Assembly: GCA_039030515.1 (NCBI GenBank)
Contig: JBCCEA010000007.1
Span: forward strand, 70,920-134,919
Reading direction: 5' to 3'
DNA length: 64,000 bases
Source: Myxococcota bacterium
GTDB lineage: Bacteria > Myxococcota_A > Polyangia > Polyangiales > Houyiibacteriaceae
In this document: in pieces, positions 2,903-64,000 of the stretch
How positions within the stretch are numbered: the stretch's first letter is position 1
Layout: each line of letters begins with the position of its first letter
The notes under the pieces: generated by a model
Told to the model about the DNA's origin: nothing
The model's input: the letters and a program-made list of their open reading frames with translations, nothing else
Databases searched by the model: none
Program-made: the position numbers and the translations under genes

Positions 2903-2978
2903 TGGCGTCCCCAGAGGGGTTTGAACCCTCGTTACCGGCGTGAAAGGCCGGGGTCCTGGGCCACTAGACGATGGGGAC
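2903..2978 (-). tRNA. tRNA-Glu (TTC)
   Basis: Reverse strand GTCCCCA...CCGGC-CT-TTC-AC-GCCGG...GGTTCAAAC...TGGGGACG-CCA; cloverleaf with encoded CCA. Confidence 0.96.
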
Positions 2979-3005
2979 TAAATTTCAGATTCCGAGTCGG
3001 TTGGG

Positions 3006-3078
3006 TGGGCCGTGCAGGGTTCGAACCTGCGACCGTTGGGTTAAAAGCCCACTGCTCTACCAACTGAGCTAACGGCCC
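3006..3078 (-). tRNA. tRNA-Lys (TTT)
   Basis: GGGCCGT-TAGCTCAGTTGGTAGAGC...TGGG-CT-TTT-AA-CCCA...GGTTCGAAC...ACGGCCC-A; followed by CCC, so CCA is not encoded. Confidence 0.96.
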
Positions 3079-48693: not shown

Positions 48694-49347
48694 GTGAAGA
48701 CGCCACGAAAACGAAATCGATCGGCGACGAGAGAGAGGTTTGAACTCGACGTCGGTCCCCATCTCAAATCTCTTTATGGCGCTGCCGTTCGCATGGCGCG
48801 CTCACCGAGCGATGCTGAAGATCTGGTTCAGGATACGGTCCTCAAAGCCTTTCGCTTTTACGACCGCTTTGAGCCCGGTACCAACATGAAGGCTTGGCTG
48901 CTGAGAATCCTCACGAATACGTTCATCAATCGTTATCGGCGGCAGATTCGAGAGCGCAATACCCTGGACGAACCTTCAGCCCAGGTGATAGGCGAAGGGG
49001 TGATGAGTCGGGCGGCAATGCGGTCGCTTTCTGAACCTACGTCTGATGCCGAGAGGGCGCTCCTTTGCGCAGAAATTCAAAAGGCACTCGATGGGCTTTC
49101 TGACGAATACCGCCTCGTTATCGAGCTCTCGGATATCCAGGGGCTTTCTTACCGAGAAACCGCCGATGCCTTAGGTTGCCCGGTGGGTACCGTGATGTCT
49201 CGCCTTCATCGCGCCCGAAAGATCATGCAGCGAGAACTTGTCGAGCAGGCGAAAGCCTTGGGAATCCTCGCCGATAAAGATTCGAACGAGGCGAAGCCGG
49301 TTTCGCTCTTGGAGTTTCGGGATCGACAACGTGAGGCTGTGGGATGA
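48694..49347 (+). CDS. ECF sigma factor
   Basis: [46 protein letters not shown]. Confidence 0.95.
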
Positions 49348-50156
49348 ACTGTCGTTTGGTGCAGCGCCATTTGGGACCTTATCTCGATGGGGAGCTCAGT
49401 CCGTCTACCCAGCTTGAGTTCGAAAAGCACCTTTCTCATTGTCCGGACTGTCAACAGTGCCTCGAGTTTGAGCGTTCGTTTCGGGGCTATGTTCAGGAGT
49501 CGATAGAGTCACCGGAATTGCCTCTAGGTTTTGAGGATCGAATCGCAAAGTCGCTGGATGCCGTCGAGTCAGAACATCGGGGCCAATCGTACGTTGCTCC
49601 GGGACGGGCTTTTTGGATGGGACTTGTCGCAGTGTTCGTTGTGGGTTTTGCGGTTGCGATGGACGGCCTAGGCAACGACTCCTCGATCGTGCGCCGTGCC
49701 CTTCAGAGAACGGATCGCGCCGCATTTGTTCCAATGTTTGAGGAGGTGACTCGAATTCACTCGAGTGAGTTGCCACCCGATGTGCGTAATGGTGCTGAGG
49801 TACCCGACTACTTCCGAGGCAAAGTACGGTTTCCCGTGCGCCCCGCGGTCTTCGATTCCATCCAAGCTGAATTCGTCGGCGCTCGTCTCTCGAACGTTCG
49901 CGATCACAGTGCAGCAGCCCTTTACTATTTAGTGGACGGGCGTAGGGTGACCGTTGTGGTGACGGATTCACTGCCGGTGCGGGAACATGAGGGGTTGGCT
50001 CGATTTCGCTTTGGTGACAGCCATGTGCTCTACCGTCATGTCCAGGGGTACACAGTTCCAGTCAGGAATCATCGTGGTTTGACGTATGCCTTTACCGGAG
50101 ACTTGGACGAGGGTCAGGTGCTTCGCTTAGCGGCCACTTCGCGCATTGAACGATAG
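49344..50156 (+). CDS. Zinc-binding (zf-HC2) transmembrane anti-sigma factor
   Basis: [14 protein letters not shown], single TM; ATGA overlap with the sigma gene. Confidence 0.92.
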
Positions 50157-50325: not shown

Positions 50326-52602
50326 GTGATGGGCCAACGAATCCTGATCTTCGAAAGCGATACCGACTTTGCGAACCTCCTTCAATCTGGCTTCAAAAGC
50401 TTTGGCGTCAAAGTTGATATTGTGGCCGATGGCGCTGAAGGGTTGCAGCAGGCGATAAGCAAACCTCCTTCGCTGATCCTTTTATCGATCGAACTGCCGT
50501 CGATGAATGGATTTCAGATTTGCAAAAAGCTAAAAAAACATCCCGACTTAAAAGACGTTCCTTTGGTGATTCTGTCGAGCGACGTCAATGCTGAGGAGAT
50601 ATTCGAACAGCATCGGAAGCTTAGGCAGCGGGCTGAAGATTACATTCTCAAACCGGTTTCCTTCGATGCGATCGTTGAGAAGATTGAAAAGCTCATCAAA
50701 CTCGAGATGCCGGAAGATGAACTTTTGGATATTTCGGCCGAACTCGATATCGAAGAAGAGCCCGTCGTCAACGCCTCTGCCTCTGAGGTCGATGAGGAGA
50801 TCGAGGCTTTCACGGAGAGTGCTTTCGACAACATCATCATGGATGAAGAAACGCTTTCGATCGAAGTGGATCACGGAGTCGAGGATGTTTCCTTCTCGGA
50901 ATCCGGCGCGATCGAAGGCGCAGCAGCCGAGCACAATTCCGCATATCCGCCAGAGGTTGAACTGCCGGACGTAGAACTGCCGGATGTGGAACTCGCAGAT
51001 GAAGAACTTCCAGAAGTGGAGCTCCCGGAGGTACAGCTCTCAGTCGATAATGCGCCGATTCCTCCGGTATCGGTTGAAGACGCTTCAAAGGAAATCTCAG
51101 CTCTTTCTCCTGATGCGACGACATCGGGCCACATAGCCGAGTTGGAGGCTGCGAGATCGAGTGTTTTGGAGCTCGAGTCTCGGCTCACGGCTGCACAAAA
51201 AGAGAGTGAAGAAGCGCGACAACAGCTAGGGAGAGCTCAGGCCCGAATTCAGGAGGTGAACACCCTTCAATCTGAGATTTCCGCACTAAAAGCTCAGATG
51301 GCGAAGTCTTCTGAAGGGGGAGCTCGGTCTTCCGGTGGAGGAGGCGTATCAAGTCGAGAGTTCCTAGACCTTCGAGAGGCTCTAAACACAAAAGATCGGG
51401 AGCTTCTTAATCTTAAAGATCAGGTTAGTGCACGTGACAAGCAGGTTCTCGAGTTGCGCGATAGAAACCTGCAGTTTGAGCGTGAAAAAGCGGACTACGA
51501 CGAGAAAGTGCTTGGCTTGGAGAGGAGCCTGGCAGATGTCAATGATGTTGTAACCCAACTCAAAGAAGATAAAGCCGCAAGCGAGAAGCGACTTGAGGAC
51601 TTGAAGGGTCGCGCAGAGCGATCGGAAGCAAAAAACAAAAAGCTAGAAACGGAGATCGATCGGCTGCACGAGTCGATCGAGTCGGTGCGCACAACGCTTG
51701 GTGCAGAGCATGCCGCTGCTCTCGGCGCTCAGAAGGCGGAGTACGAAACGAAGTTCGGTGACCAGCAGGCTGCTCACGAGCAGGCGCACCGAGAGGCGCA
51801 AGCGGTTTTCGACCACGAGAAATCGCGACAGAGCACCCTGCACCAATCGGAACTGGATTCGCTTCGGACAAAACATCAGGCCGAAATTGCAGCGTTCAAG
51901 GAGCAGCAGGCGAGCGAGGTTGAGGCGCTCAAGTCGGAGCACGCAAAAGAAACGCTTCTCGCGCAAAAGGCTGCTGAGGAAGAGCGCGCAAAACAGCTTG
52001 CGGAACTGACGCAGAATCACGAAGAGCACGTGGCCAAGCTCCAAAAGGAATTTGAGGTCGAAGGAGATCGGCGGGTTGCTGAGACGATCCGGACAAAGGA
52101 AGAGCGAATTTCGCTGATTAAGTCGGAGCATGCAGCAGCGATGACGAGTAAGGAGCAGGAGTTGTCTGAGGCCCATGAGGGTTCGTTGCTCCAGCTTCGT
52201 GAGGAGCACCAACAGGAACTGGCTACCATGGGTCGGAAGCTTTCAGAGACCGAGTCTAGCCTTGAAACCACGCGGGTTGAGCTTTCTAAGACCGAGGAGC
52301 AGCGGGCAGAGCTCGACAGTGGGCTTGCTGCACGAACTGTGGAGCGAGATAAGATTTCTGAAGACCTCAAAGCGTCGGATGCCAAAGTTGCCCTGCTGAC
52401 AACGAACTGCTCCGGGTTGGAGTCCGACCTCACGGAGGCGCAGCAAACCAAGGACCGGCTCCAAGAAGATCTGGACCAGCTCCGCAGCAAGGTCGACATG
52501 GACACGGAGATTCTCGAGCGTGCCCGCAAGGCGGTGGCGATCAGTCTTGGTCTCCTGGAAGACCAGCGCAACAACTCGCTGTCGAAGGACGCCGCTCAGT
52601 AG
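50326..52602 (+). CDS. frzS: FrzS-like pseudo-receiver / coiled-coil motility protein
   Basis: ILIFESD, Ser at the phospho-Asp site (LLSIELP), NGFQICKKLKK, QHRKLR..AEDYILKPV; acidic linker; long coiled coil. Confidence 0.7.
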   Translation: MMGQRILIFESDTDFANLLQSGFKSFGVKVDIVADGAEGLQQAISKPPSLILLSIELPSMNGFQICKKLKKHPDLKDVPLVILSSDVNAEEIFEQHRKLRQRAEDYILKPVSFDAIVEKIEKLIKLEMPEDELLDISAELDIEEEPVVNASASEVDEEIEAFTESAFDNIIMDEETLSIEVDHGVEDVSFSESGAIEGAAAEHNSAYPPEVELPDVELPDVELADEELPEVELPEVQLSVDNAPIPPVSVEDASKEISALSPDATTSGHIAELEAARSSVLELESRLTAAQKESEEARQQLGRAQARIQEVNTLQSEISALKAQMAKSSEGGARSSGGGGVSSREFLDLREALNTKDRELLNLKDQVSARDKQVLELRDRNLQFEREKADYDEKVLGLERSLADVNDVVTQLKEDKAASEKRLEDLKGRAERSEAKNKKLETEIDRLHESIESVRTTLGAEHAAALGAQKAEYETKFGDQQAAHEQAHREAQAVFDHEKSRQSTLHQSELDSLRTKHQAEIAAFKEQQASEVEALKSEHAKETLLAQKAAEEERAKQLAELTQNHEEHVAKLQKEFEVEGDRRVAETIRTKEERISLIKSEHAAAMTSKEQELSEAHEGSLLQLREEHQQELATMGRKLSETESSLETTRVELSKTEEQRAELDSGLAARTVERDKISEDLKASDAKVALLTTNCSGLESDLTEAQQTKDRLQEDLDQLRSKVDMDTEILERARKAVAISLGLLEDQRNNSLSKDAAQ

Positions 52603-54298: not shown

Positions 54299-54646
54299 AT
54301 GCACGATACCGATACCGATACCGAGCAGAAGTTGGTCACCGATACCGAGCAGAAGTTGGTCGAAAAACTCGCCAGCGCTGTATGTGCGTCGCGAATGCAA
54401 GATCCAGCGCTTTTCATCCTCGAGTCGATCGGTCCATTGAACTTTTTACTGTCGCAACTGATGCATTTTAGCTACCCCTTGATGCATATCTTCCTGCAGC
54501 AGGGCGCTCTTGGCGAAGGGGGGTCGGGCGGGAGGACTCGTTTCCGCTTGAGTGCACGCGAGTACCGTGAGCTTGCCGGTCTTCTTGAACGGCGAGATGC
54601 GGTTGAGAGACTGATTCGTGCCCTTCAGGCGGAGGCGCAGCTGTAG
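54299..54646 (+). CDS. Small conserved-looking hypothetical protein
   Basis: PALFILESIGPLNFLLSQ..LLERRDAVERLI; AGGA before ATG. Confidence 0.72.
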   Translation: MHDTDTDTEQKLVTDTEQKLVEKLASAVCASRMQDPALFILESIGPLNFLLSQLMHFSYPLMHIFLQQGALGEGGSGGRTRFRLSAREYRELAGLLERRDAVERLIRALQAEAQL

Positions 54647-54921: not shown

Positions 54922-56421
54922 TCACGAATCAACCAGTTTGATCCCTGGCCACGCCGGATGTTTCGTTTCGCTTTCGCAAAGCAACGCTTGAGGATAGGTG
55001 CACTGTTTGCCTGCAAAGATGCCGACAGGGTGGTGGTTTCCGCTCGACTTGATGCCGCCAAAGGGAAGCCTTCCGCTCGCTCCGGCACTGCTGCGATTCC
55101 AGTTGAGAACGCCCACCTCGAGTTCGGCTGCGGCGTGTTCGAACAGCGCCCTCGATTTTGTAAACACTGCGGCGGAAAGTCCGTATCGGGTGTGATTGGC
55201 GTACTCGATCGCCTCATCCAGATGCTCGACCGGATAAATTGCGAGATCCGGGCCGAAAAGCTCGTCGTGGGTGTAGCCGGCTACCCGGATGTCGGGTGAG
55301 GGCGCTCGATGGATCGAAGGCTGCACGTAATATCCCGTCCTGCCCTCGATCGCCAGTGGTCCCCCAGGAACCAGAGGGTCGAATCCGGCTCGGACCGCGC
55401 GCTCCTGTGCTTCAAGGAGGCGTAGTCGGGCGGCTTCTTCTACCAGTGGACCCATGAAGACTTGTCGATCCAGCGGGTATCCGACTTGAATGGATCGAAC
55501 GGTTTGCTCAAGGGCTTGAAGGAACGCTTGTTCAACCTCTTTTGACAGGTACACGCGAGAGGTGGCCGTACACCTCTGTCCAGAAGAAACATACGCGGAG
55601 AATGCGATTTCTCGCACCGCGACGTTCACGTCGGCATCGTCAAGTACGATACTCGCGTTTTTTCCACCGAGCTCAAGCGCCAGGAGCCGACCCGGACGAT
55701 CCAAGTTTGCCTGAATCAAAGATTTCCCGACGTTTTCCGAGCCTGTAAAGAGTATGCCGTCCACCTCTGGATGGGACGTGAGCCGCTCGGCGATTTTAGG
55801 GCCGCCCTGAACGACATTGAACAGCCCATTCGGCAGGTCGGCTTCTTGAAAGCATTTGGCGAGCCAATAGGCCGTACCCGGTGCTTTTTCACTCGGCTTG
55901 AATACGACCGCATTGCCTGCATGCAGCGCTGGAAGAATCTGACCGTTCGGCAGATGCGCTGGAAAATTGAAAGGACCGATGACGGCAACCACCCCCAAGG
56001 GGCGGTACCGGAGTTCGCCGTTGATCTCCGGAATCTTGTGACTTTGGGTCAAGCTGGCTCCAGGGCCCAACACGAGATCGACTTTCGCCGCAAGGGCTTT
56101 GGCCTCTGTGGTCGCGTCCCAAATCGCTTTACCCACCTCTAGGGCGATGGTTTCTGCGATTTCCGACTGATGTCTCCTGAGCGCCTCTTGGTAGCGGCGC
56201 AGTGCGTCTTCGCGCGTTGCAGCGGGTACGCTCTTCCATAGCCTCTGTGCGTTTCGAGCCGCTTCGATCGCCTCTTCCACATCCGCTTCGGCAAAGGGAT
56301 GAATGCCGACTTGCTCACTCAAGTCTCCCGGGCATCGGATCACTAGCGCACCATCCGGCTTGGCTGGAGCGCGAAAGCGGCCATCGATAAAGTTGCCCGG
56401 CTGGTTTCCATATTCGTTCAT
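54922..56421 (-). CDS. Aldehyde dehydrogenase, succinylglutamate-semialdehyde dehydrogenase (AstD)-like
   Basis: GPFNFPAHLPNG, KPSE, FTGS, LELGGKN, GQRCTA, ELFGP, GASGRLPFGG..SGNH. Confidence 0.88.
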   Translation of the reverse strand: MNEYGNQPGNFIDGRFRAPAKPDGALVIRCPGDLSEQVGIHPFAEADVEEAIEAARNAQRLWKSVPAATREDALRRYQEALRRHQSEIAETIALEVGKAIWDATTEAKALAAKVDLVLGPGASLTQSHKIPEINGELRYRPLGVVAVIGPFNFPAHLPNGQILPALHAGNAVVFKPSEKAPGTAYWLAKCFQEADLPNGLFNVVQGGPKIAERLTSHPEVDGILFTGSENVGKSLIQANLDRPGRLLALELGGKNASIVLDDADVNVAVREIAFSAYVSSGQRCTATSRVYLSKEVEQAFLQALEQTVRSIQVGYPLDRQVFMGPLVEEAARLRLLEAQERAVRAGFDPLVPGGPLAIEGRTGYYVQPSIHRAPSPDIRVAGYTHDELFGPDLAIYPVEHLDEAIEYANHTRYGLSAAVFTKSRALFEHAAAELEVGVLNWNRSSAGASGRLPFGGIKSSGNHHPVGIFAGKQCTYPQALLCESETKHPAWPGIKLVDS

Positions 56422-56554
56422 GATCGATGCTCGTTTAAGAACGCGTAAGACTCGCAGGTGCATTAGACAAGGTGAGAGGCATCTACATCAAGGATCCGGT
56501 TGCGCTCTCTTTGTGTTGACACCCATAGCTCCCTCGTAAACGCTGTCGGCGCTC

Positions 56555-58462
56555 ATGTCGGATCCTTCGTCGATCGGGCGACCCGCTCTGGACTGGTCGC
56601 GGGTGCGGAGCGTGCTTGCCACGGACTGTGGTTCGACGACCACAAAGGCGATCTTGATCGAACGCCAACCGGACGGAACGTTTTGTCTCACTGCACGCGG
56701 AGAAGCGCCGACTACGGTAGAGGCGCCCTTTGAAGACGTGACCCACGGGGTTCGGAACGCAGCTTTGGAAGTACAGGAACTCTGCGGTCGACGCCTTGTC
56801 AGGGAGGAAGGCGAGGACGGCTGTGCGCCGCAGGACTGGCTCTTGCGACCTCAGACGGCAGAGGGGGGCGTAGACGCATATATCTCCACGTCGTCGGCAG
56901 GTGGAGGGCTTCAAATGGTGGCGATGGGCGTCGTGTCGTCGATGAGTACGGACTCGGCCCTCCGAGCGGCACTTGGCGCTGGAGCCGTCGTGATGGATGC
57001 GTTTTCAATCGACGATGGACGGCCGCCGCACCAGAAAATCGAACGCATCAGGCAGCTGCGACCAGATATGGTCGTGATGGCTGGCGGCGTGGACGGGGGT
57101 ACACAGCGGCACGTCCTTCAGCTCGCGGAGATCGTTTCGGCTGCGAGCCCCAAACCTCGCTTGGGCTCCTCGTACTCGCTACCGGTGGTCTATGCCGGCA
57201 ATCAAGACTGCCGCACCGAGGTCGAGCGGATACTGGCCGACAAGGTTACCGTCATCTCGGAGCGCAATGTTCGTCCGACTTTGGAAGAGGAAGATCTGCT
57301 GCCGGCACGAGAGAGGATACACGATCTCTTTCTCGAACATGTCATGCGGCAGGCCCCGGGTTATCCGCAACTGATCGAGCTTGCCGATGCGCAGATCGTG
57401 CCCACCCCAGGTGCAGTCGGGCATTTGATTCGTTCTGTCGCCGAGGAACGGAAGCAGAACGTACTTGGAGTAGATATCGGCGGCGCCACCACCGACGTGT
57501 TCAGCGTCTTTGGTGGGCGTTTCAATCGCACTGTGAGTGCAAATTTGGGCATGAGCTATTCGGTCAACAACGTCCTTGTCGAAGCTGGCTTTGAGAACGT
57601 CGTGCGCTGGCTTCCTTTCGATTGCGAGCAGGTAGAGTTGAGAAATCGGGTGGGCAACAAGATGATCCGGCCCACTACAGTTCCCGTCGATCTCGTCGAC
57701 CTCCAGATAGAGCAGGCCATCGCTCGGGAGGCCTTGAGGCTCGCACTCAAGCAGCACAAGGAGTTCGCGGTGGAGCTTCGAGGGATCCAGACCGATCGGA
57801 CCATTTCGGACGCCTTTCGGCAAAGTCATCGGAGCCGCAGCCTCATCCGAATGAACGATCTCGATCTCGTGATCGGCTCAGGCGGCGTATTAAGTCACGC
57901 GCCGCGGAGGGTTCAAGCCATGCGCATCCTGATCGATGCGTTCTTGCCGCAGGGGTTCACCGAGATCGCCGTCGACTCGATCTTTATGATGCCCCATCTA
58001 GGGGCGTTGGCCGCGCATCATCCCGAAGCTGCAGCCCAGGTTTTTGAACGCGACTGTCTGGTGAGGCTTGGCACGTGCATCGCTCCTGTAGGACGGGCTC
58101 GGATCGGAGCGCCTTGCCTTCGGGTGCTCATCGAGGCCGAACGCCGCACCCACTCTTTTGAATGCGCTGTCGGCGAGCTTCGTGTGGTTGCCTTGCCCTT
58201 AGGCGAGTTCGCGACAGTTCAGGTGACCCCGACAAGGCGGTTCGACCTTGGCAACGGGTTCGGTACGTCGGTACAGAAAAAGGTGGGCGGAGGTGTGGTG
58301 GGCATGGTCTTCGACACCCGGGGACGACCGAAGCCCTGGTTGAACGGGTCGGGCAGGCTTGAGCGTCTACGGCAATGGTCGCGGGCATGCGAGGAGTACC
58401 CGGAGGGGCACGAAGACGCGATCCAAAACCCTCAGGACGCAGGAATGCCCCTCTATGGCTAG
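56555..58462 (+). CDS. GlmL/MutL (glutamate mutase L)-like ASKHA ATPase
   Basis: TDCGSTTTKA, TSSAGGGL, AGGVDGG, VDIGGATTDVFS, IGSGGVLSHAP. Confidence 0.88.
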   Translation: MSDPSSIGRPALDWSRVRSVLATDCGSTTTKAILIERQPDGTFCLTARGEAPTTVEAPFEDVTHGVRNAALEVQELCGRRLVREEGEDGCAPQDWLLRPQTAEGGVDAYISTSSAGGGLQMVAMGVVSSMSTDSALRAALGAGAVVMDAFSIDDGRPPHQKIERIRQLRPDMVVMAGGVDGGTQRHVLQLAEIVSAASPKPRLGSSYSLPVVYAGNQDCRTEVERILADKVTVISERNVRPTLEEEDLLPARERIHDLFLEHVMRQAPGYPQLIELADAQIVPTPGAVGHLIRSVAEERKQNVLGVDIGGATTDVFSVFGGRFNRTVSANLGMSYSVNNVLVEAGFENVVRWLPFDCEQVELRNRVGNKMIRPTTVPVDLVDLQIEQAIAREALRLALKQHKEFAVELRGIQTDRTISDAFRQSHRSRSLIRMNDLDLVIGSGGVLSHAPRRVQAMRILIDAFLPQGFTEIAVDSIFMMPHLGALAAHHPEAAAQVFERDCLVRLGTCIAPVGRARIGAPCLRVLIEAERRTHSFECAVGELRVVALPLGEFATVQVTPTRRFDLGNGFGTSVQKKVGGGVVGMVFDTRGRPKPWLNGSGRLERLRQWSRACEEYPEGHEDAIQNPQDAGMPLYG

Positions 58463-59573
58463 CGCCTACACCCCCGGCCTACGCGTGACCGCAGAAGCGC
58501 AGATCGTACGGGAGCGGCGTCTGCCTCTGCAGGGGGAAGTGCTGGTGTCCGAGGGTGATCGCGTGGCGGCAGATTCGATCGTTGCCCGCACAGCGCTACC
58601 GGGAAGGGTATTTGCGCTCAACGCTGCAGGCAAACTCAATATCGTTGAGTCTGATCTTCCATCGATGATGCAAGTTACTCAGGGTGCGAAGGTGACCGAG
58701 GGCGATGTTCTGGCCGAGACTCCCGGTATTTTGGGCCTGTTCCGTTCTCGACTCGTTGCTCCGGTGGACGGCACGGTGGAGTCGATCAGCGCGGCCACCG
58801 GCAGAGTCATGGTGCAGGCCTCTCCCTTGCCGGTCGAGGTGCAGGCCTACGTCGACGGTGAGGTCGTCGAGGTCTGGCCCTCCGAAGGATGTGTCGTCCG
58901 CACTCAAGGCGCGCTTTGCCAAGGAATCTTTGGGGTTGGGGGTGAAACCCGCGGCAGGATTCTGGTTGTTGCCGGAAGGGGCGAGGTCGTTACCGAACGG
59001 CATTTCGGCTCGGAGTCGATGCAGGGTGCGGTTGCGGTTGGGGGGGCGCTTTTGACCTTCGAGGGATTTCAGGCGGCGCGCCAAGCCGGAGTTCGTGCGA
59101 TCGTTGCAGGAGCGTTAGACTATCAAGATATTGCACGCGTAGTGGGGCGTCAGGTAGGGGTTGCAGTCACGGGAGGTGAGCGGCTCGGGATAACCCTGGT
59201 ACTTACCGAGGGGTTTGGTCGCATCGAGATGGCTCGGCGTACTTTCAAGCTGCTGGAGTCACTCGAAGGAGATGTGGCCGCAGTCAATGGCGCAACTCAG
59301 ATACGCGCCGGGGTAGTTCGACCTGAGATCATCGTGCCCAGCCGCAGCTCGAGCGTGGAACTTCAAACAACCCATCATTCACGGCTCGACGTAGGCAGTA
59401 GGGTCAGAGTCATTCGGACCCCAAACTTCGGCAAGCTTGGCCACGTCACCGAGCTCCCGGTGCAGTCTCGGCGTATGCCCTCGGAGTCCTCGGTTCGGGT
59501 ATGTGTCGTGCAACTGGACTCGGGAGACTCAGTCACGGTTCCCCGCGCCAATGTGGAGCTCTTCGGGGAGTAA
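58455..59573 (+). CDS. Soluble hypothetical protein with barrel-sandwich hybrid motifs and C-terminal KOW/SH3-like domain
   Basis: Start MASAYTPGL overlaps the upstream stop; VSEGDRV, VTQGAKVTEGDVLA, LTEGFG, VGSRVRVIRTPNFGKLG. Confidence 0.82.
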   Translation: MASAYTPGLRVTAEAQIVRERRLPLQGEVLVSEGDRVAADSIVARTALPGRVFALNAAGKLNIVESDLPSMMQVTQGAKVTEGDVLAETPGILGLFRSRLVAPVDGTVESISAATGRVMVQASPLPVEVQAYVDGEVVEVWPSEGCVVRTQGALCQGIFGVGGETRGRILVVAGRGEVVTERHFGSESMQGAVAVGGALLTFEGFQAARQAGVRAIVAGALDYQDIARVVGRQVGVAVTGGERLGITLVLTEGFGRIEMARRTFKLLESLEGDVAAVNGATQIRAGVVRPEIIVPSRSSSVELQTTHHSRLDVGSRVRVIRTPNFGKLGHVTELPVQSRRMPSESSVRVCVVQLDSGDSVTVPRANVELFGE

Positions 59574-59576
59574 GAA

Positions 59577-61238
59577 ATGAGGGACTGCACGCGTTTACGT
59601 GGGACCAAAACGATCAAGAGCTCGCGCTCGGCAGACCGCGTAATCGGACTTCTGTCTCGTGCTCCGCTACTCATGAGCTGCATCATTTCGGTGCTGCCGG
59701 GCTGTCGTCCCCCACAGGTCGAGCTGGCACCTCCCGGAGTCCCTCGGGTGGAGGTCGAGGTGCAAGACGATAGCGAGCGGGTGTTTCTTCACGTGCCCCG
59801 TTCGCCTGATGGCTTGGGGGAGCGCCAGTTGGTGGTCGATTACGTACCGCTTCGGGCCAGGCTGCACGCGTCTGCCGATGAAGACCTCGAGTACCGTCCC
59901 TTCCTTTTCGAACCCTCGCCGAAATCCACCGCACAGACCCTTGTCTTTGAAGACCGAAGTGCCGTTTCTGGAGTCCGCTATCGATATGTGGTTGCGGCGC
60001 TGGCATCCAAGGAGCGCATGGGATTTGATCGGCCCGGAGCTCTCGCTGTGTTCTCCGAAGCCTCGCCCGTGCTGGTCTTTAACGAGATCGAGACCGAGGC
60101 CGCCTCAAAGAACCGAAGCTCTGATCTTCAGGTGGAGGTACAGGAAGCGCCTGGGGGTGCAGGAGAGGCGGTGGTTCTCTCTATTCGTGAAGAAGGCGCT
60201 TATGATGGTGTTCCCGGAGCAGATGGACTTTCTGGCTCAAGATTTTCGGCGCTCCGCGCACGCGGCGACGGACCGTATCTGCCCTTTCCGGGCGGCTTGA
60301 CCCCCCTTCAGCCGAACCGCGCAGGATGCATCGAAGGCACCTTGGCGGTCCCCGGACCCGGCCAGTATCGCTATCGAGTGTATGTGCTACCCGACCATGG
60401 AGAGGCGGCCGTGGTTGCAACCGTCAGGGTCGACGTAGCGGAACGGTTTTTTAACCCAAAACGTCTCGCTGTGTTCACCGTGTTGCTTTTGATCGCCGGA
60501 TTCACCCTGTTTTTTTTCGTACGCACGAGAAGCCACAAACGGAGCATCTTCATTCGCAGGATTCCAGGTGTGGACGCGATCGAAGAAGCGATCGGTCGTG
60601 CGACAGAGATGGGCAAGCCGGTGCTCTATGTTCCCGGCATCGAGGAAATTCAAAACATCCAGACGATCGCATCGCTGCTCATCTTGGGGAGAGTCGCGGA
60701 GACCGTAGCTGGATACGACTCCGAACTACTGGTTTCTTGCCGGATTCCGTTGGTCGCCACCGTGAGCGAAGAAGTGGTCCGTCAGGGGTTCTTTGACGCG
60801 GGACGCCCGGAATCTCATCGACCACACAATATTCGGTGGATCAGCTCAGAGCAGTTCGCCTTTGTTGCGGGTACGGCCGGCATTATCCTGAGAGAGCAAC
60901 CGGCCACCAACATCTACCTGGGACGGTTCTTCGCAGAGTCTTTGCTGCTCGGCGAGACGGGCTACGTCAACCGCTCCATTCAGATCGCCGGAACCGCCGC
61001 GATTCCTCAGCTGCCGTTTTTTATCGCCTCTTGCGACTATACCTTGATCGGAGAAGAGCTGTTTGCGGTCAGTGCCTACCTGACACGTGAGCCTCGCTTG
61101 CTTTCCTCACTGAAGGCTGCAGACTTTGTGAAAGCAGCGGCTCTGGTTCTGCTGCTCTTGGGGAGTCTGCTCTCGTGCTTTGACCCGCAAGGCCCACTGA
61201 CCCAGGCGGTTCTCGAGTTTCTAAACGTGAGGGATTGA
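59577..61238 (+). CDS. Membrane protein with FN3-like domains and DUF6754-like domain
   Basis: GVRYRYVV and YRYRVYV beta-sandwich patterns, TM, IRRIPGVDAIEEAIGRATEMGKP, DYTLIGEELFAVSAYL, terminal TM. Confidence 0.82.
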   Translation: MRDCTRLRGTKTIKSSRSADRVIGLLSRAPLLMSCIISVLPGCRPPQVELAPPGVPRVEVEVQDDSERVFLHVPRSPDGLGERQLVVDYVPLRARLHASADEDLEYRPFLFEPSPKSTAQTLVFEDRSAVSGVRYRYVVAALASKERMGFDRPGALAVFSEASPVLVFNEIETEAASKNRSSDLQVEVQEAPGGAGEAVVLSIREEGAYDGVPGADGLSGSRFSALRARGDGPYLPFPGGLTPLQPNRAGCIEGTLAVPGPGQYRYRVYVLPDHGEAAVVATVRVDVAERFFNPKRLAVFTVLLLIAGFTLFFFVRTRSHKRSIFIRRIPGVDAIEEAIGRATEMGKPVLYVPGIEEIQNIQTIASLLILGRVAETVAGYDSELLVSCRIPLVATVSEEVVRQGFFDAGRPESHRPHNIRWISSEQFAFVAGTAGIILREQPATNIYLGRFFAESLLLGETGYVNRSIQIAGTAAIPQLPFFIASCDYTLIGEELFAVSAYLTREPRLLSSLKAADFVKAAALVLLLLGSLLSCFDPQGPLTQAVLEFLNVRD

Positions 61239-61241
61239 CCG

Positions 61242-61919
61242 ATGCGTACGGCGATACCGATGGCGGTCACCTTTTTTCTCGGCATCTTCATGATTCTCGA
61301 GTTTTTTATTCCTGCGGGCAGCGTACGTACTGCGGTCTCCCTGTTTCAAGAATGGGGACTTGTGCTCGCCAGCGCTGCCTTTGTTCTCGGCGCGATCAAC
61401 GTGATTCAGGTCAATATCCCGAAGATTCGGCGTCGTGAGCCGGACTGGGAATACAAAGTCGTGCTCTTGATCGCTGCGCTCGCAATGGCGTTTGTGGGCC
61501 TGCTCGGAGGTCGTGAAAAACATACGACTTCAGTGGACTCCACTCTTTTCGAGCTGTCTCAGGCGTATTCAAGAGAGGCCTTCGAGTTTCTCTACCTCCA
61601 CGTGTTTGCTCCGGCGAACTCCACGATGTTCTCGCTGCTCGCGTTCTTCATCGCGTCTGCCGCGTTTCGGGCGTTTCGAGCTAGGAATCTGGAAGCGTCG
61701 CTCATGTTGATCACCGCGGTTGTGGTGATGCTGGGCGTGATCCCCGTTGGCGAGTGGCTTTGGTCCGGGATGCCCGAACTGACCGATTGGATACTCAACT
61801 ACGCGAACAACGCTGGCCGAAGAGCGATCTTGGTCGGCGCCGCGCTCGGTGGCGTTGCGACAGGTCTGCGGGTGATCTTGGGACTCGAGCGCAGTCATTT
61901 GGGAGGAGAGCGTCATTGA
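61242..61919 (+). CDS. Polytopic membrane protein
   Basis: About 6 TMs; STMFSLLAFFIASAAFRAFRARN, RAILVGAALG, RVILGLER. Confidence 0.85.
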   Translation: MRTAIPMAVTFFLGIFMILEFFIPAGSVRTAVSLFQEWGLVLASAAFVLGAINVIQVNIPKIRRREPDWEYKVVLLIAALAMAFVGLLGGREKHTTSVDSTLFELSQAYSREAFEFLYLHVFAPANSTMFSLLAFFIASAAFRAFRARNLEASLMLITAVVVMLGVIPVGEWLWSGMPELTDWILNYANNAGRRAILVGAALGGVATGLRVILGLERSHLGGERH

Positions 61920-62782
61920 TAGCCGAGCTACAGGCGCTGGACCGTCGATGGCTGTTTCTCTCGATGGCGCTTGCGATCGTCCTGCCTCTGCTTTTTCCCA
62001 TAGGCATGGAGTTTTCAGTAAGCCCTATGGTTCGGGCTATTTTTGATGAGGTGGAATCTCTGCCTCCAAAGTCCACCGTGATGATCAGTGTCGACTACGA
62101 TCCGGCGGCGCAGCCCGAACTCGAGCCGTTTACCCGAGGGTTGGTCCGTCACGTACTCAGTCGGGGATGTCGACTCGTGTTCGTGACGCTTTGGGATAAG
62201 GCGCCTCCCATCGTGCTTTCAATTCTGCGTGAAGTGGTCGATGGAGAGTACGTGCGAGGAAGAGGGTATTTCGAAGGCGAACCACACCCCGACTACAGTT
62301 ACGGTGACGACTACGTCTTCCTGGGGTTCAAAGAGGGCAAGCAGATCGTGATCAACGGTATGGGGCAGAACTTCCGGCAAATGTGGCCTACCGACTGGCG
62401 CGGCACCGCACTTGACGACCTTCCCGTCATGGAGTCGATCCAGACCCTGCGGGATTTTCGTCTGATCGTTTCTTCGGGTGCAGGCGCTCCTGGGCCGCGC
62501 GAGTACGTGCAACAGGTAGTCGCCCGTCATGGACTTCGATTTGCCGCAGCGTCCACGGCAGTGAGCGTGACCGACCTAACGCCGTACTACCCCAACCAAA
62601 TCTTCGGTCTGGTCGGGGGCATGCGAGGTTCTGCGGAGTATGAACAGCTCTTGGGGTACGCGGGTCAAGGCACTGCGGGGCTTAACGTACTGACCTTTGG
62701 CCAGCTCCTGACGATCGGAGCGATTTTGCTCGGCAATGTACTTTACTTCCTTGGTCTGCTGAGGGCGCGACGGCGAAGATGA
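61916..62782 (+). CDS. Membrane-anchored alpha/beta protein
   Basis: GGAGGAG then TTG overlapping the upstream TGA; DRRW-TM, YGDDYVFLGF, GMRGSAEYE, terminal TM. Confidence 0.82.
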   Translation: MIAELQALDRRWLFLSMALAIVLPLLFPIGMEFSVSPMVRAIFDEVESLPPKSTVMISVDYDPAAQPELEPFTRGLVRHVLSRGCRLVFVTLWDKAPPIVLSILREVVDGEYVRGRGYFEGEPHPDYSYGDDYVFLGFKEGKQIVINGMGQNFRQMWPTDWRGTALDDLPVMESIQTLRDFRLIVSSGAGAPGPREYVQQVVARHGLRFAAASTAVSVTDLTPYYPNQIFGLVGGMRGSAEYEQLLGYAGQGTAGLNVLTFGQLLTIGAILLGNVLYFLGLLRARRRR

Positions 62783-63600
62783 GTGTGTCTACCTCAGACG
62801 TGATCGGTCACTGGATCGGTATCTTCGTGACCCTGGCTATCTTTAGCTACCTCTATGCCGACAACGTATTCTACAAGTTCGTCGAGCACGTCTTTGTCGG
62901 GATCTCGATCGGTTATGTGCTGGTGATCCAGTACTACGAAGTCCTCAAGCCGAATCTCATCGACCGTTTGCTCGATCCAACGCTCGGAACGGCGCGGGCA
63001 GTCTACTTAACGCCTCTGATTCTGGTGGTGTTTTTATTTCTGCGCTTGTCTCGAAAGTTTGGATGGCTCGGCAGGATCGCGATCGCGTTCGTTATCGGGA
63101 CGTATGCGGGGATTGAGGTGCCGGCTGTCGCCAACAGCGACCTCGTGGAGCAGTTGGCGTCGACGGTGGGCGCGGTTCATCAATACTCCCTGCGCATATC
63201 GAGCTCGGGGCAGAGCGTGACCTCAGCCGTGATGGCGACCTGGACCGATGCACTCGGATGCTTTGTGCTCGTCTTTGGTATGGCGGCCGCACTCGTCTAT
63301 TTCTTCTTTTCCATCGAACACCGAGGTGTGGTGGGCGGCGTCGCGAAGGCCGGCGTGTGGGTCTTGATGGTCGGATTTGGTGCCGCTTTCGGGTATACGG
63401 TGCAGGGCCGCATCAGCTTGGCGATTGGCAGAGCGATGTACTGTCTCGGGACGAACCAGTCTCCAGAGCAGGCGATTCACTATAAGAGCAAGATGGTTTC
63501 ACTCATCCTCGTGGTGGTGATGCTCGGCGTAATTTTGTTGCTCGAGCAAAGAAAGAAGCGCGAGGAGTCTCAGCCTACAATCGGCGCAGACAATTCGTAA
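62779..63600 (+). CDS. Polytopic membrane protein
   Basis: ATGA overlap; TLAIFSYLYADN..EHVFVG, YFFFS, MVGFGAAFGYTVQGR; about 7 TMs. Confidence 0.85.
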   Translation: MSVSTSDVIGHWIGIFVTLAIFSYLYADNVFYKFVEHVFVGISIGYVLVIQYYEVLKPNLIDRLLDPTLGTARAVYLTPLILVVFLFLRLSRKFGWLGRIAIAFVIGTYAGIEVPAVANSDLVEQLASTVGAVHQYSLRISSSGQSVTSAVMATWTDALGCFVLVFGMAAALVYFFFSIEHRGVVGGVAKAGVWVLMVGFGAAFGYTVQGRISLAIGRAMYCLGTNQSPEQAIHYKSKMVSLILVVVMLGVILLLEQRKKREESQPTIGADNS

Positions 63601-63619: not shown

Positions 63620-64000
63620 AAAGCCGCTACTTCGAACGTCGAGCATCTTCGGTCAGCAGCCGTTCAGGCCTAGCGACCACCACACCCCAGGGGGCCTAGG
63701 TTGTTCGAAACAGGGAGCGCCCCCGACCAGCGCGTCTCGATGGGTTTGAACGCCCAGCGCCCCGCACGCGCAGGCGTGAAGGAGTATTTACGATACTTCG
63801 AACGTCGAGCATGGGAGGTAAGCAGGCGTTCAGGCCTAGCGAGGCGTGCAGTAGCGCAGGAGCGAAGGCGTACTTAGAGTACGTTGAGCTTTGAGCATCG
63901 AAGGTAAGCGGCTCTATGGCGTGCGTTTGTCGTAAACCCCCGCGGCCGTTCAGGGGCGTCAGAAAGCCAGCGCCCCCGCAGTGAGGAGGAGGAGGGTACA
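63620..64000. repeat. Intergenic modular palindromic repeat cluster, locus C (runs off the window)
   Basis: 63716-63786 is nearly identical to 25002-25072; same hairpin units. Confidence 0.88.

Follow-up and report, generated by a model that had tools for sequence, protein, structure and literature searches.

A stretch of 64,000 nucleotides from a Myxococcota bacterium (contig JBCCEA010000007.1, positions 70,920 to 134,919 of the forward strand; hereafter the window) carries a conserved gene system made up of a soluble module of three proteins (g0, g1 and g2) and a four-gene membrane cassette (g3 to g6). At its core is g1, an actin/Hsp70-fold protein related to GlmL. The system is spread over many bacterial phyla, for the most part uncultured ones, and appears to be new as an assembly; the reading that we favour, with somewhat less than even confidence, is an ATP-driven membrane translocator. 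An original prediction from this DNA had proposed an operon of six co-oriented genes with tight junctions, and all of these could be read from the sequence as claimed. The six open reading frames (ORFs) g1 to g6 lie on one strand at 56555..63600, with the ATG of g2 (58455) inside the end of g1 (TAG, ending at 58462), the g2 stop (TAA 59573) followed by the g3 start (ATG 59577), the g3 stop (TGA 61238) followed by the g4 start (ATG 61242), a TTGA junction between g4 and g5 at 61916 and an ATGA junction between g5 and g6 at 62779. The seventh member, g0, was absent from that six-gene description; in the window an aldehyde dehydrogenase gene on the opposite strand separates it from g1 (Table 1).

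The same genes recur together in many lineages, as had been expected of a real system. We compared the window with 80 related loci (53-61% identity; L numbers below), the best of at least 593 confirmed relatives among at least 600 pattern matches in a scan of GTDB genomes. All six genes stand in the order g1-g2-g3-g4-g5-g6 in 35 of the 80, which are 35 of the 56 having at least 7.5 kb downstream of g1, and this order is complete in 11 of 18 further loci from the window's own phylum. This conservation of order is not due to chance. The g0 family is found in 70 of the 80 loci, directly upstream of g1 (within 700 nt) in 68, and g2 is present in 53. Labels of the 80 loci include Latescibacterota, WOR-3, Nitrospirota, anammox and other Planctomycetota, Myxococcota, Marinimicrobia, Gemmatimonadota, Acidobacteriota, BRC1 and Bdellovibrionales. 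The original prediction had placed similar gene sets in poorly studied anaerobic lineages; the system reaches beyond anaerobes, as Nitrospirota and Myxococcota have it too.

Co-occurrence was also seen at the level of whole genomes (G numbers below). From the 80 locus-bearing genomes, 50 were picked for spread (51 with the window's own genome), and DUF6754, the conserved domain of g3, was present in all 50 g1-bearing genomes tested; of 34 selected genomes, 30 have g2. When 251 genomes were drawn evenly from the own phylum, DUF6754 occurred in 29 and PF13941 (MutL), the family of g1, over cut-off in 30, with 28 genomes common to both. The two genomes with PF13941 only have short frames of 446-480 amino acids (GlmL size) and no g2, and the single genome with DUF6754 only, an assembly in 180 contigs, has neither g1 nor g2. 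These figures describe co-occurrence and carry no statistical test, because kin are not independent.

In its own lineage the presence of the system is patchy. DUF6754 was found in 0 of 18 same-family relatives (0 of 17 in the own-phylum draw), and the closest g1 relative among the matches listed is labelled Sandaracinaceae (65% identity). Contamination or recent transfer was considered, but the GC content of the operon (0.58-0.62) resembles that of its flanks (0.52-0.61). The families are large: the g1 search gave at least 7,999 candidates and the g5 family comprises 5,497 representatives at 50% identity (E<=0.001). A search for DUF6754 in viral contigs gave no confirmed relative. In 22 of the 80 loci, an eighth small gene lies upstream of g0, encoding about 140 amino acids with two hydrophobic helices and a soluble tail (for example L003:3269-3829, L016:9256-9693, L049:9246-9671 and L057:9088-9621); it matches no Pfam family and was not found in the own genome. 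The labels of L022 (Enterobacteriaceae) and L080 (Desulfuromonas) conflict with their tree placement, next to deltaproteobacterial and WOR-3 sequence, and may belong to mislabelled bins.

The protein g1 belongs to the ASKHA (acetate and sugar kinases, Hsp70 and actin) superfamily, and its PF13941 score (Table 1) compares with a cut-off of 27 bits. The phosphate-1, phosphate-2 and adenosine motifs, previously described as intact, are present and conserved: in 40 aligned relatives both phosphate motifs and residues S442, G443 and G444 are invariant, and G441 is nearly so. By analogy, g1 would bind and hydrolyse ATP. It is homologous to GlmL/MutL and Or-4/OraF over 450 residues, sharing with them the ASKHA core with the same ATP motifs and an inserted alpha/beta domain, and databases name it 'glutamate mutase L' or 'methylaspartate mutase'. 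In PMC4682846, MutL/GlmL is described as a chaperone that serves to reactivate glutamate mutase, and the paper cited there in support is one on diol dehydratase.

As judged from family profiles and phylogeny, g1 is not a mutase-linked GlmL/OraF protein, in agreement with the original prediction. Its scores lie below the cut-offs of NF040745 (215 vs 475), NF040744 (192 vs 600) and TIGR01319 (160 vs 204), while the control proteins in L096 (GlmL, 633 vs 475) and L094 (Or-4, 752 vs 600) pass. In a quick LG+G4 tree of 39 rows with long outgroup branches (31 of the 79 full-length loci, the window and 7 outgroup rows), a branch of length 3.5 (Shimodaira-Hasegawa-like approximate likelihood ratio test 100) separates all 32 operon proteins from the 7 mutase-linked rows, amounting to one change. 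True GlmL proteins have 461-467 residues against about 600 in g1, whose C-terminal extension of about 130 residues has no counterpart in true GlmL/Or-4. Five annotated GlmL records show the order glmS-glmL-glmE and two unannotated ones have mutase-like flanking frames, whereas g1 travels with g0, g2 and the membrane cassette and has no glmS, glmE or ora neighbours. A PDB profile search returned no solved structure for any GlmL-type protein.

The gene content of the genomes agrees with this separation. GlmE is over cut-off in 1 of 50 g1-bearing genomes and lysine/ornithine aminomutase in 2 of 50, and the own genome (4.08 Mb, 85% complete) has neither by the same profiles, of which the aminomutase one did match elsewhere. 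Methylmalonyl-CoA-mutase (MCM)-family genes are present in 35 of 51 genomes, including the own one, where there are three matches; one of them shares the contig of g1, at a distance of about 92 kb. In 16 of the 51 genomes, among them each of the five labelled as anammox and a Latescibacterota record that consists of a single chromosome, GlmE, the aminomutase and the MCM family are all missing, and EutB is absent too (0/17, with a positive E. coli control). The survey covered GlmE, the aminomutase, the MCM family, EutB and diol/glycerol dehydratase, in genomes that are mostly incomplete and metagenome-assembled. Diol/glycerol dehydratase was found in 0 of 51 genomes, by a search that gave no match in any control genome either. 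The view of g1 as a reactivase for GlmE and the aminomutases is thus largely refuted. One MCM-family match of the own genome, C20:53261-54802 (-), carries one in-frame TAG.

The soluble partner g2 had been credited with hybrid-barrel and KOW-like motifs; the former is matched by weak barrel-sandwich hits in sequence searches and the latter is supported by the structure model. In structure comparisons of the model, the barrel-sandwich hybrid domain resembles RnfC (Z 7.8) and NqrA (Z 7.4), the swivelling beta/beta/alpha domain resembles the His domain of phosphotransferase system (PTS) enzyme I (Z 9.3, root-mean-square deviation 3.0, 110 aligned) and RraA (Z 8.8-9.2), and the KOW/SH3-like tail resembles NusG/Spt5 KOW folds (Spt5 KOW, Z 8.6). 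No glycerol/diol dehydratase reactivase chain is among the 50 best fold matches listed for g2. Its mean column identity is 58%. No carrier lysine is invariant at the hairpin tip: positions 90, 94 and 97 are Lys in 17, 19 and 28 of 36 rows, and the window g2 has Lys at none of them. Likewise, no phosphorylatable His is conserved in the swivel domain (the commonest His column reaches 12 of 36 rows), and there are no Fe-S cysteine sets, with no Cys column above 10 of 36 rows. The small protein g0 has no Pfam, NCBIfam or PDB match; the window copy contains a duplicated DTEQKLV stretch and an 18-residue glycine-rich insert, neither of which occurs in 28 aligned relatives.

The membrane cassette is predicted to hold a soluble domain on each side of the membrane. 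In g3, a signal/lipobox-like start is followed by a variable outer domain, a transmembrane (TM) helix, the DUF6754 domain and a second TM helix, with a K/R cluster directly after TM1. The model of DUF6754 (predicted local distance difference test score, pLDDT, 90) consists of a Rossmann-type domain between two helices that are predicted to span the membrane, and its fold matches are tied at Z 9-10.7 between Sir2 (DHS-like), transhydrogenase dIII and RCK, at 6-15% identity. DUF6754 contains an invariant Cys-Asp-Tyr and, with a mean column identity of 57% (38% in g4, 44% in g5 and 33% in g6), is conserved as strongly as g2, as expected of a docking domain. A conserved ASAAxRxFRAR motif and a C-terminal GxER mark g4, a second TM helix with conserved His and Asn marks g5, and an invariant DN..K..E motif marks g6; conserved polar residues thus lie in or next to the TM helices of all three (g5 H/N, g6 E/R/T, g4 T/S/N/R), and no cysteine in them is conserved at 90%. 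Family-averaged hydropathy and K/R counts predict that the DUF6754 domain is inside and the g5 domain outside, and that g4 (N-in) and g6 (N-out) are antiparallel.

The outer parts vary from locus to locus. The original prediction had seen an FN3-like periplasmic input in g3. The fn3 domain itself is real, being over the Pfam cut-off in the g3 outer part of relatives L112 and L117, but this part is variable and dispensable and is therefore unlikely to be an essential input. The window g3 outer domain gave no tblastn match in any of the 80 loci, and the domain is very short or missing in L016, L046, L062, L068, L077 and L078. Further accessory domains are a CARDB Ig-like insert within the g5 domain (P0157), a PEGA domain in g4 of relatives and a 340-residue helical insert, long inserts of this kind lying in the outer loop of g6. 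Together with the OmpA and helix-hairpin-helix domains described next, all of these lie in predicted outer segments, which fits the topology. The g3 copy at L108:5601-7052 (-) has an OmpA-family peptidoglycan-binding domain inside its outer part. A ComEA/GspK-like helix-hairpin-helix was seen in the predicted g6 outer loop of L052:18893-19924, L123 and L124 (3 Pfam hits among 44 selected long proteins, in few own-phylum loci only), with a similar-looking one in L125.

The membrane subunits match no known transporter family in the searches made, as the original prediction had supposed. The Pfam scan gave no family for g4, g5 or g6, and 32 g4 and 27 g6 members produced scattered weak Pfam/NCBIfam matches; identities as Mrp-G, CrgA or an acyltransferase, suggested by such weak matches, were rejected as noise from TM composition. 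Sequence and profile searches of g0-g6 against the PDB gave nothing significant, Foldseek gave domain-level matches only and the Atlas gave unnamed clusters only, including Chloroflexota zinc-ribbon fusions for g5. By its features g6 fits no named family, and its other structural rows have TM-scores of at most 0.38. A word search for longer g5 forms scored none, which is weak evidence because g5 fusions surfaced in another search. PADLOC reported 0 anti-phage defence families for the 7 proteins at E<=0.01.

The soluble module and the cassette behave as separable units. Natural g1-g2 fusions occur in L104:3008-5806 (-), in L103 and among L143-L195; a fused query retrieved 59 metagenome loci, 41 of which carry such a fusion. 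They are about 840-980 residues long and have a duplicated barrel-sandwich region; the three ATP motifs are retained in every one of the 36 full-length metagenome fusions, and that of L104 is without the KOW tail. Genome G005 has a canonical g1 plus a g1-g2 fusion, and g5-g6 fusions were also found (P0211, P0244). Two to five DUF6754 copies are over cut-off in 16 of 50 genomes; of these, 13 show just one g2 match, 2 combine a canonical g2 with divergent or fused copies and 1 has none. Genomes of WOR-3 type mostly pair such multiple DUF6754 copies with one g2. The extra DUF6754 copies examined mostly sit in whole g3-g4-g5-g6 cassettes, and G068 and G098 each have two DUF6754 and one PF13941. 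In G050, a strongly divergent g3-g4-g5 cassette lies behind a second canonical g3 (L080:17660-20305), and a divergent g1/g2 pair has eroded phosphate-2 and adenosine motifs (L105:2721-5617); these copies are possibly specialised or decaying.

A complex prediction with g1, g0 and a DUF6754 chain lends weak support to a contact between g1 and DUF6754, and at most the same weak support to the original proposal that the ATPase would power or gate the membrane complex. DUF6754 scored 0.46, compared with 0.01 for the best of 3 controls and 0.00 when g1 was replaced, the runs agree in at least 49% of contacts and the partner has a pLDDT of at least 70. Of 157 solved pairs, 116 reach the mark used, against 2 of 215 mismatched ones; with a score of 0.60 or below, only 18 of the 157 solved pairs do so, as do both mismatches.

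From these observations, a translocator driven by ATP appears to be the best single description of the system, though one that we hold tentatively. It is favoured because at least 12 conserved helices with polar residues are combined with a soluble domain on each membrane side, and because the conserved inner domain has a weakly predicted ATPase contact and the soluble module appears to be shared in the manner of the energy-coupling factor (ECF) importers. In such a machine, the g1 ATPase would take hold of DUF6754 on the cytoplasmic side and drive its cargo, a small solute or cofactor, through the g4/g6 helices from the outer g5 domain. The stroke may be a subunit swap or ratchet as in glycerol/diol dehydratase reactivase, and import would be the favoured direction, both by analogy only. 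Cobalamin is possible as the cargo.

Several results weigh against this translocator. No transporter family matched g3-g6 in Pfam/NCBIfam, PDB profiles or the Atlas, so that the pore is inferred; neither the 26 loci searched nor the window showed a riboswitch that might hint at the cargo; and no neighbouring pathway recurs across lineages. A weak Hydantoinase_A match on g1 (24 bits) implies that g1 could instead be an ATP-using enzyme. The g1-g2-g3-g4-g5-g6 order is incomplete in 21 of the 56 loci with room for it, soluble and membrane modules often being encoded apart; such separation is seen mainly in WOR-3-type, Brocadia, Marinimicrobia and some Myxococcota loci, where the missing genes were located elsewhere in the genome. 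Of the 59 loci found with the fused query, 2 have cassette genes close by, and module sharing in WOR-3-type genomes rests on the copy counts of g2, not g1. The complex prediction returned no interface, and its score of 0.46 lies in a range where, by the tool's own grading, wrong calls outnumber right ones except for guesses with a good prior likelihood.

A more specific version joins several parts and is, taken as a whole, possible but doubtful: the system would be a new class of primary active transporter unrelated to ABC (ATP-binding cassette)/ECF, P-type and rotary ATPases. Here g1 and the swivelling g2 would use a reactivase-like swap on the Rossmann domain, with the cargo passing via the antiparallel six-helix pair. 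The cassette would be an ancient inverted duplication ([g3+g4] vs [g5+g6]), as its symmetry suggests, with one ATPase serving several cassettes, and the GlmL/OraF accessory proteins of B12 mutases would be an offshoot or sister of the transporter's ATPase. The duplication finds little echo in the sequences: hhalign gave 1.5% and 0.5% for paralogy of the g3 C-terminal part and g5 (not significant), the best cross-hmmsearch E-value was 0.003 in a 200-sequence space (not significant), in a profile test 5-12 of 150 block permutations did as well as the real data (borderline), and sequence tests showed no paralogy of g4 and g6.

Known machines resemble the system in part. As described in PMC7674605 for the mechanism concerned, the glycerol/diol dehydratase reactivase has an actin-fold ATPase and a swivelling domain, and its subunits are swapped on ATP hydrolysis. 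The folds of g1 and g2, fused in one subfamily, pair in the same way, which we take as analogy and not membership; there is no Pfam match to the reactivase family, the g2 swivel is in a separate or C-terminally fused chain, and the partner predicted for g1 sits in the membrane. In ECF-type ABC importers, one energising module is shared. The present system seems in some genomes to join one soluble ATPase module with several separately encoded membrane units, and g4 bears a conserved arginine-rich cytoplasmic motif; it differs in having no ABC_tran/P-loop ATPase (PF13941 is the sole nucleotide-binding family), no EcfT or S-component match by sequence or profile, and four subunits per cassette with a soluble domain predicted on each membrane side. 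RnfA and RnfE form an antiparallel pair. With Rnf/Nqr, the system shares the barrel-sandwich hybrid domain in g2 and two predicted antiparallel six-helix subunits with anchored inner and outer domains, whereas it has an ATPase in place of the NADH/flavin module, no conserved Fe-S cysteine sets in g2, g4, g5 or g6, one invariant Cys in DUF6754, and no Rnf/Nqr family match over cut-off in the window proteins.

Of the other explanations, a membrane enzyme complex fares best, though we consider it unlikely. In it, g1 would use ATP to phosphorylate or activate a substrate of lipid, acyl or lipoyl type, possibly coupled to PTS-like vectorial release across the membrane. The Hydantoinase_A match, with the hydantoinase/oxoprolinase relatives of g1, the lipoyl-like barrel-sandwich and PTS-enzyme-I-like swivel folds of g2 and the invariant Cys-Asp-Tyr of DUF6754 are consistent with such a complex, as are lipoyl genes that adjoin g0/g1 or lie within about two genes of them in four contexts (gcvTHP in WOR-3, lplA in Latescibacterota and L020, pdh-lipA in L066) and plsX, accA, cdsA and lipases near other loci. 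However, g2 lacks the invariant hairpin-tip lysine and the conserved swivel histidine, and by a rough hand count lipid or lipoyl neighbours occur in about 16 of about 60 contexts, which is not clearly above housekeeping level and mostly lineage-specific. Lipoyl-related neighbours were seen in WOR-3/Latescibacterota loci including L047, L066, L020 and L021, and elsewhere plsX or accA follow g1, g6 or g2. In L014, L017, L037 and Latescibacterota, oligopeptide ABC genes lie beside the operon or interrupt it.

Transmembrane signalling is a less probable alternative still. The outer domains would sense the envelope, the cassette would relay, g1/g2 would act as a nucleotide switch and the KOW/RraA-like domains as output. 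The high variability of the outer domains, including the peptidoglycan-binding OmpA domain, would suit a sensor, and so would the duplication and occasional strong divergence of cassettes (L080), the g1/g2 pair with eroded ATP motifs (L105), RCK/KTN gating domains among the tied DUF6754 fold matches, and the NusG/Spt5 KOW and RraA folds of g2. Yet no output gene (kinase, cyclase, protease or DNA-binding) is a recurrent companion of the system, at least 12 conserved TM helices would exceed what a relay needs, and the fold matches, at Z 7-10, are to common arrangements.

An envelope assembly platform or exporter with an actin-fold scaffold, or a translocator of macromolecules such as DNA, seems quite improbable. 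In the PilM, GspL and FtsA systems, an ASKHA protein binds membrane proteins by their cytoplasmic portions, and Hsp70 import motors are further actin-fold proteins in membrane machines. The position predicted for g1, at the cytoplasmic face of a membrane complex, is similar, and the OmpA, fn3 and CARDB domains suggest anchoring in the envelope; the ComEA/GspK-like helix-hairpin-helix of L052, L123 and L124 is also in line with this reading. Against this, g1 is of another ASKHA subfamily, no pilin, pilus, secretin, secretion, division, competence or J-domain partner recurs near the system, and the helix-hairpin-helix insert is confined to a few own-phylum loci. PilM, GspL, FtsA and MreB are listed among the ASKHA subfamilies in PMC5597319. 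Finally, an ordinary B12-enzyme reactivase with its client encoded elsewhere, the membrane genes having a linked B12 role or being incidental, is very improbable: the homology to GlmL/Or-4 and the MCM-family genes speak for it, and the sub-threshold scores, the separate long branch, the rarity of GlmE and the aminomutases, the 16 genomes without MCM family and EutB, and the lack of a cobalamin riboswitch (26 loci and the window) against it.

Table 1. Features of the g0-g6 locus (window positions).
Feature	Position	Strand	Description and evidence
g0	54299..54646	+	Small helical protein, 115 aa; family profile match 106 bits (profile includes window copy)
Aldehyde dehydrogenase, AstD-like	54922..56463	-	Aldedh 422 bits; NF006992 419 vs cut-off 514
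g1, GlmL-related ASKHA (actin/Hsp70-fold) protein	56555..58462	+	635 aa; PF13941 404 bits; alignment; tree
g1 phosphate-1 motif DCGSTTTK	56624..56647	+	Residues 24-31; invariant in 40 rows
g1 phosphate-2 motif DIGGATTD	57473..57496	+	Residues 307-314; invariant in 40 rows
g1 adenosine motif GSGG	57875..57886	+	Residues 441-444; SGG invariant, G441 in at least 90% of 40 rows
g2, soluble partner	58455..59573	+	372 aa; model pLDDT 86; barrel-sandwich hybrid, swivelling beta/beta/alpha and KOW/SH3-like domains
g3	59577..61238	+	Variable outer domain, TM, DUF6754 domain (predicted cytoplasmic), TM; DUF6754 325 bits
g4	61242..61919	+	Six predicted TM helices, N-terminus predicted inside; alignment, hydropathy, positive-inside
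g5	61916..62782	+	TTG start; TM, predicted periplasmic alpha/beta domain, TM; alignment, topology
g6	62779..63600	+	Six to seven predicted TM helices, N-terminus predicted outside; alignment, topology

Around the operon, the aldehyde dehydrogenase was rejected as a member of the system: such matches occur in only 2 of the 80 related loci, at least 7.5 kb from g1. The contig ends 400 nt past g6, so no downstream neighbours are visible here, and the contig-end intergenic sequence (63630-63960) seems, by eye, to contain repeated motifs. A promoter/terminator scan of the locus gave chance-level results, and the only Rfam matches in the window are two tRNA genes (2906-3078, -). Further upstream, 50326-52602 (+) encodes a receiver domain with a long coiled coil, which we take to resemble the myxobacterial AglZ, preceded by an extracytoplasmic function sigma factor and an anti-sigma-like gene (48694-50156).

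In searches of an open-access library we found no description of the system and no mention of DUF6754 or the family accessions. Its parts are named in databases only as 'glutamate mutase L', DUF6754 or hypothetical proteins, and for five of the seven proteins no Pfam family covers the greater part of the chain. Carriers of the system are common in poorly studied phyla and include nitrite oxidisers and anammox bacteria. The labels given to g1 can mislead metabolic reconstructions, because GlmE is found in so few of the genomes that bear it. The system also offers a handle on how GlmL-type proteins work and, if it is a transporter, it would represent a new way of coupling ATP to membrane transport.

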